DNA from: Gemmatimonas sp.
Lineage (GTDB): Bacteria; Gemmatimonadota; Gemmatimonadetes; Gemmatimonadales; Gemmatimonadaceae
Direction: 5' to 3'
Length of the DNA stretch: 64,000 nt
Assembly: GCA_021154325.1 (NCBI GenBank)
Contig: JAJKIR010000044.1
Coordinates: forward strand, 10,859-74,858
Each line of letters opens with the position of its first letter. Within the stretch, counting starts at the first letter, position 1. This document shows, piece after piece, positions 1 to 62,624 of this stretch. Below the pieces are notes generated by a model. It worked only from the letters and a program-made list of their open reading frames with translations. It had not been told where the DNA came from and searched no databases. A program made the position numbers and the translations under genes.

Positions 1-1131
1 ATGATTCGTCCGGCTCGGCTGGTAGTACGCGTACAGCGACGGCAGCGTGTACTTCTGGTGCCAGGAGAGATTCATCTTCCGCGCGAGGTCGCGGCCTGCG
101 CTGTAGATGCTGAACGTCGGGTCGAGGGTGACGTCCCGTTCCTTCAGATTTTTCAGGAACTGCTTCCATTTCTCGCTGTGCGGCGTGACGAGATTCCACT
201 GCCGCGCCACCTGGCCGAAGCGGTCCTGCTCGTCGTTGTAATTCTGATCGACGGGATACGGCTGCACGGAGTTGCTGTCGTACATCGACTCGAAGAGGCC
301 ATAGAAATGCGTCACGGTCTGCAAGCCTAACGCGGTCGACTGATCGGCATTCATCATCACGACGCCGGTCTGCTGCAGATGGGCGGTAGAGCCCATGTTG
401 AGCTTCTTCGCCTCGTCGAGGAGCGCCGCCATGATGTCGGGGCGCTCGGCGCCGAGCTTGAGGCCGTCGCCGCCGTGTGCCTTGAGCCACCGCACCCAGG
501 CGCGCGCCTGATCCTGCGTGGTCACTGGGCCCTGCCCCCATCCGGTACCCGGCCGCTGGTAGACGACATACCGAGGCGCGGCGATCTCGTTCTTCGCGCT
601 CCGCTCCTTCTCGTGCATGGAGTACGCGAAGCTCGCGAAGGGAACGCCGCGCACCGTCGTTATGCCGTGCGCGAGCCAGAGCTTGTTGTAGTACTCGGAC
701 TCCGGCGCTTTCTGCGGCGTCCCCTGATGGACGTGGAGGTCGACGATACCGGGCAGGACGTACATGCCCGTGGCGTCGATCTCGCGCGCCGCGCCCTTCG
801 GTCGGCGAGTGGAATCGATTGGCACATGCGGCACGCCGACGTTGGCGATTTCCGTAATGCGATTCCCTTCCACCACGATATCGACGGGGCCGCGCGGCGG
901 GCCGCCGGTGCCGTCGATCAGCGTGGCGCCGCGGATGACGAGCTTGGTGAACGGGCCGCTGCCCTCGTGCCGATCGGGGGCAAATTTGGGATCGTCCCGC
1001 TGTTCGTTGCGCAGGTTGCGCGTTGCGGTGGTGTCGGCTGTAGTGGCAGTTGGGCGTTGTTGGGCACTGGCGCGCGTGCCTAACGAGGCAACGGCGAGCG
1101 ACAACGCGGCGATACGCGAGAGCGTTCGCAT
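1..1131 (-). CDS. Secreted metal-dependent amidohydrolase family protein, partial (3' end lies beyond window start)
   Basis: Absent from the ORF track because it has no stop in the window. My translation of the minus strand from ATG 1131..1129 stays open to base 1 (377 codons). It begins MRTLSRIAALSLAVASLGTRASAQQ (signal-peptide-like), then KLVIRGATLIDGTGGPPRGPVDIVVEGNRITEI ... GMYVLPGIVDLHVH, the HxH metal motif typical of amidohydrolases. Plus-strand ORFs 1..330, 379..1083 and 764..1177 are Arg-rich shadow frames. Confidence 0.75.
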   Translation of the reverse strand, partial: MRTLSRIAALSLAVASLGTRASAQQRPTATTADTTATRNLRNEQRDDPKFAPDRHEGSGPFTKLVIRGATLIDGTGGPPRGPVDIVVEGNRITEIANVGVPHVPIDSTRRPKGAAREIDATGMYVLPGIVDLHVHQGTPQKAPESEYYNKLWLAHGITTVRGVPFASFAYSMHEKERSAKNEIAAPRYVVYQRPGTGWGQGPVTTQDQARAWVRWLKAHGGDGLKLGAERPDIMAALLDEAKKLNMGSTAHLQQTGVVMMNADQSTALGLQTVTHFYGLFESMYDSNSVQPYPVDQNYNDEQDRFGQVARQWNLVTPHSEKWKQFLKNLKERDVTLDPTFSIYSAGRDLARKMNLSWHQKYTLPSLYAYYQPSRTNH

Positions 1132-1219
1132 ACGGCCCTCTGGCAAAACGTGGCGTATGACGGCGGAGCGCAGCTAGAGTAGCCGCGAAGGACCCGTCAC
1201 GGCAAGCCGGGCCGCGCCG

Positions 1220-59957: not shown

Positions 59958-59981
59958 CGAGCCTGGAATCGAGGTGCGTAT

Positions 59982-62624
59982 ATGCGCTGGCTGTCGAAGC
60001 TTCGCCGCCGCGTGCGGCTCATCGTCGACCGTAAGGGCGTCGAGCGCGAGATGCGCGACGAGATGCGCTTCCATCTCGAGATGGAGGCCGAGGAGCTGAC
60101 GCGCTTCGGCGCGGCAGAGAGTGAGGCGTTGCGGCTGGCCCGGCGCCGGTTCGGTGGCGTCGCCCGCTTCGAGGACGAGGCGCGCGACGCGCGCGGCGGC
60201 CGCTGGCTGGAGCAGCTGCGGCAGGATACTCGTTATGCGATGCGCGTGCTCGGGCGCGGTCGCGGCTTCGCCGCCGTCGCCATGCTGACGCTCGCGTTAG
60301 GCGTGGGGGCGAACACGGCGATCTTCAGCGTCGTCCGGGGCGTGCTCCTTCGCGCGTTGCCGTATCCGGAGCCGGAGCGTCTCGTCGCGGTGCAGTCGGT
60401 GATTCGCGGCTCGCCGACGGCGGTGTCGCCGCCGGACTTCCTCGACTGGCGCGCGCAGGCGAAGAGCTTCGCCGGGATCGCCGCGTACTTTCTCAGTACG
60501 ACGAACCTCACGGGCACGGGAGAGCCCGAACGGCTGACGCAGGCGCGGGTGTCGGCGAACTTCTTCGACGTCCTTGGCATACGACCCGCGCGGGGACGCG
60601 GATTTCTCGCGGGAGAAGATGCGCAAACCGCGCCACGCGTCGCGGTCCTGAGCGACGGCCTCTGGCGGCGCCGCTTCGGTGCTGACCCAAGCGTCGTCGG
60701 CCGCACGATTCGTCTCGACGATTTTCCGACCACCGTCATTGGGATTGCGCCGCCGGAGCTCAAGCTGCCGGTCGGCGTCGATCTCTGGCTGACGACGCGC
60801 TTCGACGCGCGGGACGTCGATCCGCGAGCTCGCGGCGCGCGCTGGATCGAGGTGGTGGGGAGGCTCTCGAGCACGGCGACACTCGCCGGCGCTAGGGCGG
60901 AGGTGAGCGCGATCGCCGAGCGGCTCGCGCTCGTGGACCCACGCCATGACGGTGGCGTGACATCGCGAGTCGCCACCCTCCAGGAGGATCTCGTCGGCGG
61001 CGTTCGCACACCGCTGCTGATTCTGCTCGGTGCCGTCGGCTTCGTGATGCTCATCGCCTGCGTGAACGTGGCGAGTCTCTCCCTCGGCCGCACCGCCGCG
61101 CGTGAGACGGAGCTCACGGTTCGCGTCGCGTTAGGCGCTGGCCGCGGGCGCATCGCGCGACAGATCCTGACGGAGAGTCTCGTGCTCGCTGCCGGTGGCG
61201 GCATCGCCGGGCTCGCGCTCGCCGTCCTCGGCACACGGGCGCTCGTCGCGCTCGCGCCGGGCGAACTGCCGCTCGTCCACGCCGTGCACGTGGACGGAGC
61301 CGTGCTGTCGTTCTCGCTCGCCGTGACGCTGCTGAGCGGAATCGTGTTCGGCGTCGTACCGGCGCTGCAGGGCTCGCGACAGGGCATCGAGGCGCGACTG
61401 CGAGCGGGGAGCCGCGGGGTGTCGTTAGGCTCGGGACGCCTGCGGCGGATGCTGGTCGTCACCGAGGTCGCGCTCGCGATGACGTTGCTCGCGGGCGCGG
61501 GCCTCCTCGTCCGCAGTCTGACCCGGCTCGCGGCCGTCGATCCCGGCTTCCGCCCGGACCACCTGGCGACTTTCTCCGTCACGCTGTCACCCGTTCGCTA
61601 TCCGGACGCGGCGCGACAGGAGCAGTTCGCGCACGAGCTCGAGACGCGTCTCGAGCGGCTACCTGCTGTGACGGCGGCGGGGATCTCGTTCGGACTGCCA
61701 CTGGCGAACGGTGGCTTCGGCTTCACGTTCACGATCGGTGGGCGGCCCGAGGTGAGCGGTCCGGACGAGCCGCGGGCGCAGGTGCGCATTGCCACGCCCG
61801 ACTTCTTCCGCGCCATGGGGATCCCGCTCGTGCGGGGCCGCGGGTTCACAGCACGGGATGACGAGACGGCGCCGCGAGTGATCCTGATCAGCGAAGCGGC
61901 GGCGCGGCGGTACTGGCCTAACGAGGATCCGATCGGGCAGACGCTGCAGACCGGCTGGGGGCGGGATGAGACGCATCGTTTTGGCGGGACCATCATCGGC
62001 GTCGTCGGGGACGTGCGGCAGTTCAGCCTCGCCATGGCGCCGTTGCCCGAGATCTACGGCCCACTAGCGCAGCGGCCGCTCGACGAGATGAGCGTCGTGA
62101 TTCACTCGACGACGACGACGTCGACAGTGCTCGCCGCGGCGCGCGCGATCGTCCGCGAGCTCGACGCCGAGCTTCCCGTTTACGATGTCCGCTCGTACGA
62201 CGAGATCGTCCGCGAGTCGATCGCCGAGCGGCGATTCTATGTCACCTTGCTCGCGATGTTCGCGGGGCTGGCGCTGGTGCTGGCGGCGATCGGGATTTAC
62301 GGCGTGATCGCGTACTCGGTGCAGCAGCGACGCCGTGAGCTGGGGATTCGCATCGCGCTCGGCGCCACACGGGAGCGCGTGATCGGTCTGGTGATGCGCC
62401 AGGGGATGACGCTCACGATCGCGGGCGCGGCAATCGGTCTCGGCGTCGCAGGGCTGCTCACGCGTGTGCTGCGTGGGCAGCTGTACGAGGTGAGCGCGAC
62501 CGACCCACTCACCTTCTTGCTCGTGCCGGCCATACTACTTGTCGTCGCGGCAGTCGCGTGCATAGTGCCGTTGCGGCGAGCGATCGCGGTCGATCCGGCG
62601 ACGACGATTCGCGCCGAGAGCTGA
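59982..62624 (+). CDS. ADOP-family duplicated MacB/FtsX-like ABC permease
   Basis: 880 aa. The N-terminal prefix is LRRRVRLIVDRKGVEREMRDEMRFHLEMEAEELTRFG, followed by two FtsX modules. GAGGTG lies upstream of the ATG. Third paralog in the window. Confidence 0.9.
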   Translation: MRWLSKLRRRVRLIVDRKGVEREMRDEMRFHLEMEAEELTRFGAAESEALRLARRRFGGVARFEDEARDARGGRWLEQLRQDTRYAMRVLGRGRGFAAVAMLTLALGVGANTAIFSVVRGVLLRALPYPEPERLVAVQSVIRGSPTAVSPPDFLDWRAQAKSFAGIAAYFLSTTNLTGTGEPERLTQARVSANFFDVLGIRPARGRGFLAGEDAQTAPRVAVLSDGLWRRRFGADPSVVGRTIRLDDFPTTVIGIAPPELKLPVGVDLWLTTRFDARDVDPRARGARWIEVVGRLSSTATLAGARAEVSAIAERLALVDPRHDGGVTSRVATLQEDLVGGVRTPLLILLGAVGFVMLIACVNVASLSLGRTAARETELTVRVALGAGRGRIARQILTESLVLAAGGGIAGLALAVLGTRALVALAPGELPLVHAVHVDGAVLSFSLAVTLLSGIVFGVVPALQGSRQGIEARLRAGSRGVSLGSGRLRRMLVVTEVALAMTLLAGAGLLVRSLTRLAAVDPGFRPDHLATFSVTLSPVRYPDAARQEQFAHELETRLERLPAVTAAGISFGLPLANGGFGFTFTIGGRPEVSGPDEPRAQVRIATPDFFRAMGIPLVRGRGFTARDDETAPRVILISEAAARRYWPNEDPIGQTLQTGWGRDETHRFGGTIIGVVGDVRQFSLAMAPLPEIYGPLAQRPLDEMSVVIHSTTTTSTVLAAARAIVRELDAELPVYDVRSYDEIVRESIAERRFYVTLLAMFAGLALVLAAIGIYGVIAYSVQQRRRELGIRIALGATRERVIGLVMRQGMTLTIAGAAIGLGVAGLLTRVLRGQLYEVSATDPLTFLLVPAILLVVAAVACIVPLRRAIAVDPATTIRAES

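Follow-up and report, generated by a model that had tools for sequence, protein, structure and literature searches.

The window, by which we mean the whole 64-kb stretch of DNA analysed, holds genes for ADOP permeases, an O-acetylhomoserine sulfhydrylase, asparagine synthases and glycosyltransferases, among others. The octamer GCCTAACG is found in it as 33 exact copies, 17 on the plus and 16 on the minus strand, and every coordinate and strand given for them by a sequence-only reading is an exact match. The copies, and one one-mismatch copy, are listed below with the strand of the copy in brackets; codons are those of the coding strand.

325..332 (+), gene 1-1131(-), GCG TTA GGC (A-L-G)
1078..1085 (+), gene 1-1131(-), TCG TTA GGC (S-L-G)
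2690..2697 (+), ADOP-type permease 1220-3922(-), GCG TTA GGC
3062..3069 (+), ADOP-type permease 1220-3922(-), CCG TTA GGC (V-P-L-G-M), with a paralogous copy at 5826
3936..3943 (-), intergenic, in the 58-nt spacer separating two permease genes
4556..4563 (+), ADOP permease 3981-6689(-), C GTT AGG C (V-R)
4653..4660 (+), ADOP permease 3981-6689(-), CCG TTA GGC (P-L-G)
5826..5833 (+), ADOP permease 3981-6689(-), CCG TTA GGC (V-P-L-G-M)
8045..8052 (-), TauE-like gene 7309-8241(+), TCG TTA GGC
13388..13395 (-), intergenic, flanked by divergent genes 11549-13309(-) and 13760-14971(+)
16923..16930 (+), O-acetylhomoserine sulfhydrylase 15884-17230(+), GGC CTA ACG (G-L-T)
18881..18888 (-), PLP decarboxylase 18249-19703(+), C GTT AGG C (V-R)
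21399..21406 (+), AMP-binding gene 19998-21404, the word's TAA being the stop codon
21411..21418 (-), one-mismatch copy, CGTTAGGG on the plus strand, 4 nt past the copy at 21399
22450..22457 (-), gene 21938-23128(-), CAG CCT AAC GTG (Q-P-N-V)
26389..26396 (+), heparinase II/III-like gene 24693-27272(+), AGC CTA ACG (S-L-T)
29056..29063 (-), asparagine synthase 27251-29251(+), GTC GTT AGG CGG
29966..29973 (+), glycosyltransferase 29229-30500(+), ATG CCT AAC GCG (M-P-N-A)
30467..30474 (+), glycosyltransferase 29229-30500(+), TCG CCT AAC GCC
32971..32978 (+), glycosyltransferase 31853-32995(-), CTC GTT AGG CCC
37660..37667 (+), gene 36696-37922(+), TGC CTA ACG (C-L-T)
37760..37767 (-), gene 36696-37922(+), TTC GTT AGG CGC
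39833..39840 (+), gene 38953-40053(+), TGC CTA ACG
41131..41138 (-), gene 40069-41520(-), AGC CTA ACG
42144..42151 (+), polysaccharide flippase 41604-43163(-), ACG TTA GGC
48386..48393 (-), asparagine synthase 47172-49085(-), CTG CCT AAC GTC
49685..49692 (-), Wzy-like gene 49092-50426(-), GCG CCT AAC GGT
55532..55539 (-), Wzc-like tyrosine kinase 53750-56233(-), GGC CTA ACG
56493..56500 (-), intergenic, 11 nt downstream of gene 56512-57714(-)
58403..58410 (-), gene 58039-58443(+), TCG TTA GGC
60295..60302 (-), ADOP permease 59982-62624(+), GCG TTA GGC
61129..61136 (-), ADOP permease 59982-62624(+), GCG TTA GGC
61423..61430 (-), ADOP permease 59982-62624(+), TCG TTA GGC
61916..61923 (+), ADOP permease 59982-62624(+), TGG CCT AAC GAG, within the conserved YWPNEDP peptide

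The word is eight letters long, asymmetric and non-palindromic.

Over-representation of GCCTAACG in the window is fully confirmed. Dinucleotide shuffles contain a mean of 1.04 copies (maximum 4), an excess of 32-fold, so that 33 copies are seen where about one is expected. Markov models of orders 0-3 predict 0.5-2.5 copies, the earlier estimate of 2-3 corresponding to the order-0 value (2.48), and under both order 2 and order 3 the word is the top-scoring of all 8-mers. Orders 4-6 reproduce the count only because nearly all occurrences of CCTAAC (40), GCCTAAC (35) and CCTAACG (38) in the window are themselves parts of GCCTAACG. The seven one-mismatch variants reported earlier all exist, but they are only those that keep CCTAAC; the window total is 42.

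The copies were said to lie in more than 20 unrelated genes, and 29 of the 33 are indeed inside about 22 different genes, in both orientations, with three intergenic (3936, 13388 and 56493) and one (21399) supplying a stop codon. Four stop-free frames tolerate the word: xCG TTA GGC (12 copies), GTT AGG (5), CTA ACG (6) and CCT AAC (6), and the codon contexts first cited as examples are all correct. Codon preference is overridden, as had been proposed. TTA makes up 1.4% of Leu codons in the window, and 12 of its 31 occurrences are within GCCTAACG, as are 6/51 CTA, 5/59 AGG and 6/59 CCT codons. In Gemmatirosa, 252 of 325 TTA codons (78%) are within the word, and permissible peptide sites are near saturation, the word spelling 25% of [SPTA]-L-G and 42% of x-P-N-[VADEG] sites. 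The Pro codon of YWPNEDP is CCT in 7/7 word-bearing lineages vs 3/48 others. The word is thus retained at synonymous sites in relatives, beyond amino-acid constraint. Site 16923 reads GCCTGACG or GCTTAACG in relatives, and site 18881 reads TGTTAGGC in L168.

The excess is extreme, exact and lineage-specific. The word-bearing clade consists of soil Gemmatimonadota, including a cultured species, with about one copy per 1.5-2 kb; density in word-bearing DNA ranges from 0.5 to 0.9 copies per kb (0.52 in the window). Related metagenome contigs (219 kb) contain 114 copies vs 1.1 expected (0.52 per kb), and a complete 1.04 Mb megaplasmid from the cultured species Gemmatirosa kalamazoonensis contains 699 vs 12-33 expected (0.67 per kb), where GCCTAACG is the top 8-mer, with an observed/expected ratio of 20-60. 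Enrichment thus extends beyond the window and beyond any single gene family. The word is found in relatives with MetY identities of 86-100%, as well as in Gemmatirosa, and is absent from two other Gemmatimonadota with MetY identities of 81-83%. Other soil bacteria (2.1 Mb) have approximately 0.01-0.02 copies per kb, and 1.43 Mb of other phyla yielded 10 copies. The core GCCTAAC is, as a variant of the word, enriched in some, not all, Chthoniobacterales (Verrucomicrobiota). We found no prior report of GCCTAACG abundance in the literature.

All replicon types sampled in these hosts carry the word, from chromosomal contigs and a pair of megaplasmids to the tail module of a phage. Megaplasmid density equals that of the chromosomal contigs of other species, which fits any host-wide process. 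The tail module (L223, siphovirus-type) has 6 copies in 13.5 kb, near host density, some of them inside the tape-measure gene; the word is missing from its distant relatives in other hosts. Between genomes at approximately 77% nucleotide identity orthologous sites turn over, with one site common to 4/5; it is density that counts, not position. On the Gemmatirosa megaplasmid 16% of copies are intergenic vs 8.4% non-coding DNA (about two-fold density), 66 copies supply stop codons, and the word is enriched at gene ends.

An impression of plus-strand copies to the left and minus-strand copies to the right of the window does not amount to polarity, as a hand count gives 17 orientation runs vs 17.5 expected. 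Orientation was also compared with replichore in Gemmatirosa (365:334), and the maximum polarity for any origin is 54.8%, within the shuffled null. Copies there are under-dispersed, lying more evenly than chance would place them: the variance/mean ratio in 5-kb bins is 0.77, and gaps of 100-400 bp number 70 vs 120 expected. Flanking positions carry <=0.2 bit each in pooled relatives, therefore the bare word, and no longer repeat around it, is the unit; the highest flank information across data sets is <=0.46 bit, and AT-rich flanking segments are absent. The fuller consensus is Y-GCCTAACG-V, with eight invariant positions, a weak preference for Y at -1 and against T at +1, both also holding for intergenic copies. 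Comparison with one-mismatch neighbours shows one-step variants to be enriched, not depleted (for example GCCTAACA 85 vs 1, ACCTAACG 14 vs 0.7 and GCTTAACG 4 vs 0.5 expected), at position 8 in Gemmatirosa, positions 1, 3, 5 and 8 in the window's clade and position 8 in L111. The pattern looks like dialects plus mutational decay.

These statistics resemble those of known DNA-uptake sequences. The DUS of Neisseriaceae (GCCGTCTGAA core, a 12-mer with weaker flanks) is received by the minor pilin ComP; the USS of Pasteurellaceae has the core AAGTGCGGT or ACAAGCGGT and is evenly spaced. DUS/USS density is approximately 0.8-0.9 per kb, and the density and observed/expected ratio of GCCTAACG match that scale. 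With DUS the word shares an exact, short, non-palindromic form, about one copy per kb in both orientations without polarity, intragenic location in all tolerated frames, a non-coding excess, weaker flanking positions, lineage-specific dialects and occasional inverted pairs at gene ends. With USS it shares density (approximately 0.7-0.8 per kb), an about two-fold non-coding excess, even spacing, coding copies that gather in frames for common peptides, and two or more subtypes among related lineages. The sequence is however unrelated to DUS, which is 10-12 nt vs 8 nt, and GCCTAACG differs from USS in having no AT-rich flanking segments and in its host phyla. The inverted pairs noticed at gene ends exist, as at 21399/21411 (stem 7 bp, loop 4 nt, without a U run), but close pairs of the kind typical for DUS terminators show no excess over chance.

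Tentatively, with the odds somewhat against any single reading, we favour the word as a DNA uptake or transfer tag upheld by transmission bias, like DUS/USS. GCCTAACG (Y-GCCTAACG-V) would be a lineage-wide genomic tag, read by a single asymmetric sequence-specific recogniser, most likely a component of a DNA-uptake or DNA-transfer machine. Fragments carrying the word would be preferentially taken up or transferred and recombine into the chromosome, and therefore alleles spelling it would spread; copies would build up where protein coding allows, and AT-to-GC mutation would wear them away. Transmission bias, rather than a local role of each copy, would then hold about one copy per 1.5-2 kb. Molecular drive would predict that thousands of interchangeable sites become saturated, an outcome that appears hard to reconcile with per-site selection; this argument was reportedly published for USS, and the reasoning here is based on it. 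The bias would thus be one of uptake or transfer, and the organisms presumably competent; a literature search found no report of competence for Gemmatimonadota or Chthoniobacterales. The likeness to DUS/USS suggested earlier stands in every statistical test run, but the core in two phyla and the phage copies fit it poorly. To our knowledge each known uptake sequence is restricted to one family, so the GCCTAAC core in a second phylum counts against the uptake reading and would imply transfer of the specificity determinant from one phylum to another. The phage copies also count against it, as uptake drive would only permit them, and only if the phage is a prophage.

It is possible, if rather doubtful, that the word is instead recognised inside the cell and favoured by selection for its density, either as an unpolarised Chi-like signal or as the site of an abundant chromosome-organising protein. 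Desiccated soil bacteria frequently suffer random double-strand breaks, and in the Chi-like version the word would stop a helicase-nuclease of the RecBCD/AddAB type at them. Such a site would be expected on all replicon types sampled, as observed, and predicts the phage copies, given that distant tail-module relatives elsewhere have no word. Even spacing would suit the need for a site close to any break or loop, and the patchy two-phylum distribution a transferable enzyme, whose gene would have crossed between phyla. Chi (e.g. GCTGGTGG) is comparable in being an asymmetric octamer of exact sequence that a single protein recognises and that its host genome carries in excess. However, all characterised Chi sites and KOPS known to us are strongly co-oriented with replication, and the lack of polarity contradicts the polarised recombination signal once considered. 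Chi over-representation under weak per-site selection is a few-fold; the enrichment of GCCTAACG is higher than that of Chi/KOPS by an order of magnitude, and its observed/expected ratio and 25-42% peptide-site occupancy are far above what such selection would give. No nucleoid protein known to us has exact 8-bp sites by the thousand within genes.

A by-product of DNA modification and repair, as proposed for cyanobacterial HIP1, is unlikely. Here a transferable methyltransferase (e.g. m5C) and a mismatch nickase would turn near-cognates into the word, affecting chromosome, plasmids and phage alike, and such systems cross phyla, matching the patchy distribution. HIP1 (GCGATCGC) is also an intragenic octamer; its observed/expected ratio runs from tens to a hundred, it is conserved across a large clade, and its function is debated, a recent proposal being that it serves as an uptake tag (bioRxiv 10.64898/2026.06.24.733823). 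HIP1 is however a palindrome methylated by cognate enzymes, whereas GCCTAACG is asymmetric. The published SMRT methylome of Gemmatirosa KBS708, with three motifs each methylated at >99% of genomic sites, has no m6A or m4C at the word, contradicting a methylation signal of these two types; m5C is not excluded by it, as SMRT detects m5C unreliably. In addition, the C-to-T and G-to-A neighbours, targets of Vsr-type depletion, are not depleted and several, namely GCCTAACA, ACCTAACG and GCTTAACG, are enriched, and single-mismatch correction would hardly yield approximately 700 copies per Mb from an expected 1-3 precursors per Mb.

A packaging (pac-like) signal of a gene-transfer agent or generalised transducing phage is very improbable. 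Word-bearing segments would be packaged and transferred more often, giving the same drive as uptake bias and all of its signatures, and the word is present in a siphovirus-type tail module. Against this, no terminase or GTA cluster is linked to the word, one site per 1.5 kb is many more than headful packaging requires, and phage host ranges seldom cross phyla.

An artefact of composition, of a single protein motif or gene family, or of assembly would account for the two paralogous copies (3062 and 5826) and the one within YWPNEDP, and is otherwise refuted by the excess over shuffles, the spread over unrelated genes, four frames and two orientations, the rarity of the word in other phyla and in equally GC-rich controls, the Gemmatirosa megaplasmid, and its recurrence in PacBio, Illumina, JGI, ENA and Logan assemblies.

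The non-palindromic 8-mer GCCTAACG occurs in 33 exact copies in the 64-kb window when both strands are searched, 17 on the + strand and 16 on the - strand. All 33 coordinates listed in the sequence-only reading proved exact, with none extra, and the seven one-mismatch copies that it listed are all present in the window. The chance expectation from dinucleotide-preserving shuffles is 1.04 ± 0.98 copies (maximum 4), and 0.5-2.5 copies are expected from Markov models of order 0-3. The earlier claim of over-representation holds against a background model, as GCCTAACG is the strongest outlier among all window 8-mers with both order 2 and order 3. 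Models of orders 4-6 match the window count only because nearly all occurrences of CCTAAC (40), GCCTAAC (35) and CCTAACG (38) in the window belong to GCCTAACG. The enrichment signal resides in the 8-mer itself, and the flanks are almost information-free, both in the window and in pooled relatives; the word is not a piece of some longer repeat. Orientation changes in 17 runs versus 17.5 expected (hand count), in agreement with the previous statement that the window has no consistent strand polarity.

Forty-nine genes, covering 94% of the window, were called with a codon-likelihood model, and these agree with the JGI calls for the same DNA. Within them lie 29 copies, spread over about 22 genes whose functions are unrelated, among them genes for three ADOP-type (duplicated) MacB/FtsX permeases and for methionine biosynthesis, and genes of a large exopolysaccharide locus. 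One further copy supplies a TAA stop codon and three are intergenic. Copies occur in each of the four stop-free frames (Leu-Gly 12, Val-Arg 5, Leu-Thr 6, Pro-Asn 6), and 17 copies run against the direction of transcription and 12 with it. The spread over more than 20 unrelated genes, intergenic sites and four frames that was proposed from the sequence is thus borne out, and with it a protein motif is rejected. The word accounts for 12 of the 31 TTA codons in the window, 6 of 51 CTA, 5 of 59 AGG and 6 of 59 CCT. As had been suggested from the rare codons TTA, CTA and AGG, the word is upheld in the DNA itself, in spite of codon preference. The main gene regions are as follows.

Gene regions of the window
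1220-6689 and 59628-62624: three ADOP-type duplicated MacB/FtsX permeases, one with a PadR regulator ahead
13760-21941: block syntenic across Gemmatimonadota, word-bearing and word-free alike, with acyl-CoA dehydrogenase-like protein, 303-aa class II tRNA-synthetase-like protein, MetY (O-acetylhomoserine sulfhydrylase, 15884-17230, + strand), homoserine O-acyltransferase, PLP decarboxylase, carrier protein, adenylating enzyme and flavin reductase
21938-57714: large exopolysaccharide locus, with two AsnB-type asparagine synthases, heparinase II/III-like protein, several GT2/GT4 transferases, Wzx, Wzy, Wzc-like kinase, Wza-like exporter and priming sugar transferase

The product of the 13760-21941 block may be small and carrier-protein-dependent. 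The word is sparser in the exopolysaccharide locus, with 3 copies over 42.2-55.5 kb. About 30 ADOP-type permease paralogues are found on each Gemmatirosa megaplasmid.

The window is of metagenomic origin, and NCBI assigns homologues of its MetY to Gemmatimonadota. Metagenomes were searched with one ADOP permease as the query, and the word is present in each of ten loci matching at 52-88% identity, with densities of 0.2-1.0 per kb; in the four longest, GCCTAACG ranks first among 8-mers. The remaining 69 permease loci together have about 17 copies over about 0.69 Mb. Among MetY-syntenic contigs, those with 86-88% MetY identity have 8-9 copies per 21 kb and one at 83% identity has a weak excess, and CCTAAC is absent altogether from two MetY-syntenic contigs (83% and 81% MetY identity). 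The megaplasmids of the cultured Gemmatirosa kalamazoonensis strain KBS708 (73% G+C) carry 45 and 40 copies in the 50 kb read of each. In pooled relatives (219 kb), there are 114 copies versus 1.1 expected, oriented 59:55. The control set consisted of at least 80 MetY loci from many phyla (68-77% identity), MetY being too conserved to yield near relatives; in the control phyla, 10 copies were found in 1.43 Mb of distant-phylum contigs among the MetY matches listed. The enrichment is a trait of a Gemmatimonadota clade that includes a type strain. It extends beyond the window and beyond one gene family, to either of which it might have been limited, since the ten permease loci, the MetY contigs and the KBS708 megaplasmids are all enriched. 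A 3.7-kb contig deposited as Bradyrhizobium sp. (MBW8853024.1) encodes a protein in the 90%-identity cluster of the window's MetY, and is probably mis-binned Gemmatimonadota.

Plasmid 2 of KBS708 (NZ_CP007130.1, 1.04 Mb) was read entire. Its ends, 1-2050 and 1037950-1039999, duplicate each other (99.9% identity over 2,051 bp), probably as an untrimmed assembly overlap that slightly inflates counts, and 2 kb of overlap was removed for the count of the word. The word is the top 8-mer, with 699 copies (0.67 per kb) versus 12-33 expected from Markov models of orders 0-3, a 20-60 fold enrichment. Orientation is 365:334, and strand polarity reaches at most 54.8% for any choice of origin and terminus, within the shuffled-orientation null (95th percentile 55.4%), so that a check against replichores also finds no polarity. 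Local same-orientation runs are present (runs-test z = -3.7), plausibly due to frame preference in co-directional genes together with tandem arrays. Spacing is more even than random (variance/mean 0.77 in 5-kb bins), with a deficit of gaps of 100-400 bp (70 vs 120 expected) and an excess at 800-1600 bp (214 vs 170 expected).

Coding copies on plasmid 2 number 521 (Leu-Gly 297, Pro-Asn 159, Leu-Thr 36, Val-Arg 29), in 66 copies the word contributes a stop codon, and 114 lie between genes, the intergenic share being 16% versus 8.4% of random positions. The -1 flank is C or T in every class, including the intergenic one, and +1 avoids T, giving the full consensus YGCCTAACGV. The word holds 252 of the 325 TTA codons, and it skews both codon usage and stop-codon choice in the genes of the lineages that bear it. 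It spells 25% of [S/P/T/A]-Leu-Gly and 42% of x-Pro-Asn-[V/A/D/E/G] sites; that is, a quarter to two-fifths of the peptide sites able to spell it are saturated. The inverted pairs noticed in the sequence-only reading do exist, and some close ones on plasmid 2 form perfect hairpins, with one close pair in the window; however, their frequency is about that of chance (11 within 60 nt, and 3 with loops of 13 nt or less, among 701 copies of plasmid 2).

ParA- and ParB-like genes, judged from ORF translations, lie at about 641-651 kb of NZ_CP007130.1, near the cumulative GC-skew minimum at about 640 kb, and the origin probably lies here. The same region lacks the word over 9 kb. Other word-free stretches are lower-GC SusC/SusD-type loci, and such stretches may be younger DNA. 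The word is also embedded in short tandem arrays, so local repeat expansion can multiply it as well.

Tandem arrays containing the word
NZ_CP007130.1 697546-697598: 15-bp unit GGGATGCCTAACGGC, four repeats
NZ_CP007130.1 108117-108172: 12-bp unit, three repeats

Codon alignments of six syntenic genes from seven genomes (about 75-79% nucleotide identity) contain eight word sites, seven of which are found in a single genome. At the remaining site, GGC CTA ACG is common to four of the five word-bearing genomes; the window reads GCCTGACG there, and a relative lacking the word reads GCCTCACC. For Pro in the permease's conserved peptide YWPNEDP, 7/7 word-bearing loci use CCT versus 3/48 elsewhere, where the codon is otherwise CCG, CCC or CCA. 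One-step neighbours of the word are enriched in word-bearing lineages only, at lineage-specific positions.

Enriched one-step neighbours of the word
ACCTAACG, window's clade: 14 observed, 0.7 expected
GCATAACG, window's clade: 19 observed, 2.8 expected
GCCTGACG, window's clade: 40 observed, 15 expected
GCCTAACA, window's clade: 9 observed, 0.5 expected
GCCTAACA, Gemmatirosa: 85 observed, 1 expected
GCCCAACG, Gemmatirosa: 5-fold over expected
GCCTGACG, Gemmatirosa: 3-fold over expected
GCCTAGCG, Gemmatirosa: 7.6-fold over expected

The Gemmatirosa neighbours GCCCAACG, GCCTGACG and GCCTAGCG are AT-to-GC decay products. These alignments and counts suggest that some force generates the word wherever it is tolerated and that ordinary mutational erosion offsets it, with recognition varying slightly by lineage.

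The core of the word is also found in a second phylum. A permease locus with 56% G+C (L111) contains 28 CCTAAC within 22.6 kb, most of them extended to GCCTAAC with G, A or C as the next base. Homologues 85-89% identical to its thiolase are named Chthoniobacterales or Verrucomicrobiota, and its genes stand in the order seen in a Chthoniobacterales contig. Of the additional Chthoniobacterales contigs, two show an excess of GCCTAAC (7 vs 0.8 and 4 vs 0.5) and two do not, the contig whose thiolase is nearest being one of the latter. Some members of Gemmatimonadota and some of Verrucomicrobiota, unrelated soil phyla, thus have the GCCTAAC core in great excess. The chance of an identical 7-mer arising in both by coincidence is estimated at the order of 1e-4, and the shared core suggests a homologous, probably transferable recogniser. 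One of the Chthoniobacterales contigs (L199) carries at 1157-3527 a CBASS-like pair, a DncV-like nucleotidyltransferase and a SAVED effector, adjoining an HTH/M78 peptidase module.

Viral contigs were scanned with close word pairs as queries, so the matches contain a pair by construction and those listed are mostly chance; among them are about eight high-GC viral contigs with 5-6 dispersed copies, and the scan establishes no more than the existence of word-rich viral contigs. One (L223) proved to be a true siphovirus tail module, in which the genes for a minor tail protein and a tape-measure protein contain copies of the word. It was picked up through a word pair, and its relatives were sought independently of the motif; fourteen distant ones are word-free, except for one with two copies. 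Phage DNA of a high-GC host, presumably a word-bearing lineage, also bears the word.

The best-supported mechanism, put forward tentatively, is a transmission bias acting on recognition of the whole word. The complete 8-mer would be recognised, and alleles that spell it would enter new genomes more often; uptake sequences are thought to act by the same transfer bias. This is favoured by how dense and exact the word is, by its even spacing without polarity, by its excess in non-coding DNA, by the pattern of frames, by its dialects and its turnover, and above all by thousands of interchangeable sites near saturation, which per-site selection could hardly maintain. That last point bears on the nearest rival, a site recognised within the cell, either as an unpolarised Chi-like nuclease signal or as a binding site, which appears rather unlikely. 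A polarised word of Chi or KOPS type, and with it one form of the recombination signal envisaged earlier, is rejected: those words are co-oriented with replication, whereas this one is unpolarised, with no replication co-orientation on plasmid 2 (maximum 54.8%).

The word resembles the uptake sequences of Neisseriaceae (DUS) and Pasteurellaceae (USS) in being a hyper-abundant, exact, short word in both orientations with no polarity (17:16, 59:55, 365:334), and in lying within genes in all stop-free frames with codon preference overridden and a non-coding excess. It differs in that terminator-forming inverted pairs are frequent in DUS, whereas its own occur at the chance rate. DUS and USS are each confined to one family, with dialects among genera, and here the comparison is mixed: the word is clade-limited in Gemmatimonadota and has variant positions, and its core is also enriched in some Chthoniobacterales. 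The resemblance drawn in the sequence-only reading therefore stands for all sequence-level criteria tested but two, inverted-pair enrichment and single-family restriction. The two-phylum distribution and the phage copies weaken a simple DUS/USS analogy, as does a full-text literature search of partial coverage, in which nothing relevant was found on uptake or competence in Gemmatimonadota or Chthoniobacterales. Membership would also call for a naturally competent host (type IV pilus, ComEA, ComEC, DprA), preferential uptake of DNA with the word and a specific receptor, and on the sequence-level likeness the word is not classed as a DUS/USS member. More speculative, and doubtful, is the idea that GCCTAAC(G) is a DNA-exchange tag, a DNA-uptake or transfer "currency" shared by the two phyla, its recogniser having moved horizontally between them and the phages of the hosts having adopted it. 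If true, uptake-type signals would for the first time extend beyond Proteobacteria, and for the first time one would be common to two phyla.

The SMRT methylome of KBS708 contains three m6A motifs, RGATCY, ATGCAC and CCAGN7TCA, each methylated at >99% of genomic sites (PMC3974934). The word is not among them, which removes an m6A or m4C methylation site and to that extent the methylation signal offered earlier as an alternative, m5C being outside that result (PMC3974934). A modification- or repair-linked word like HIP1 is improbable: the cyanobacterial HIP1 is a palindrome and a target of cognate methyltransferases, whereas the word is asymmetric and not an m6A/m4C motif in KBS708. On the same grounds, asymmetry and absence from the m6A motif list, it is not a HIP-type iterated palindrome. 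Repair drive of Vsr type is unlikely, as it would deplete the C-to-T and G-to-A neighbours, which are instead in excess, and as precursors are too few for single-step correction. Restriction-modification sites are host-methylated and are usually avoided or near expectation; the word lacks m6A/m4C and is 20-60 fold enriched, and such a target is rejected. A packaging signal is improbable as well. Dispersed repeats (REP or MITE) are excluded by flanks of at most 0.2-0.46 bit and by 74-88% of copies being coding. Selection for off-frame "hidden stops" and primase start sites at CTA/TTA were set aside, as neither requires the full 8-mer.

To our knowledge, sequence-specific DNA uptake is known from two proteobacterial families only, and HIP1, the other great iterated word, is unexplained after 30 years. 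GCCTAACG is a third exact iterated word, as strong as these, in abundant and poorly studied soil phyla, and no description of it was found in the full-text literature searched, with partial coverage. As KBS708 is cultured and fully sequenced, hypotheses of uptake, binding, nuclease action and methylation are directly testable there. The patchy presence in two phyla gives a route to the recogniser by phylogenetic profiling, which single-family uptake sequences did not offer. The word is also a near-diagnostic binning marker for these lineages and their phages.

Other exceptional words were seen in Gemmatirosa. In a stretch of plasmid 1 (L175, NZ_CP007129.1 110000-159999), GACAGGATGA has 12 copies versus 0.07 expected, clustered at three loci of that stretch (1180-1272, 9253-9333 and 46530-46622) with the twelfth copy isolated at 32321. 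In the clusters, direct copies 17-18 nt apart face a single inverted copy or a pair of them about 40-70 nt off, an arrangement that looks like a candidate operator of a regulator. An apparent second word in another contig (L153, 73% G+C) is a local tandem 7-nt repeat, GCACTAA/GCACCAA at 12607-12650, which mimicked a dispersed word in the k-mer screen. On plasmid 2, the 10-mer AGGGCAGGAG has 10 copies in 50 kb (L174, NZ_CP007130.1 990000-1039999) versus 0.05 expected.
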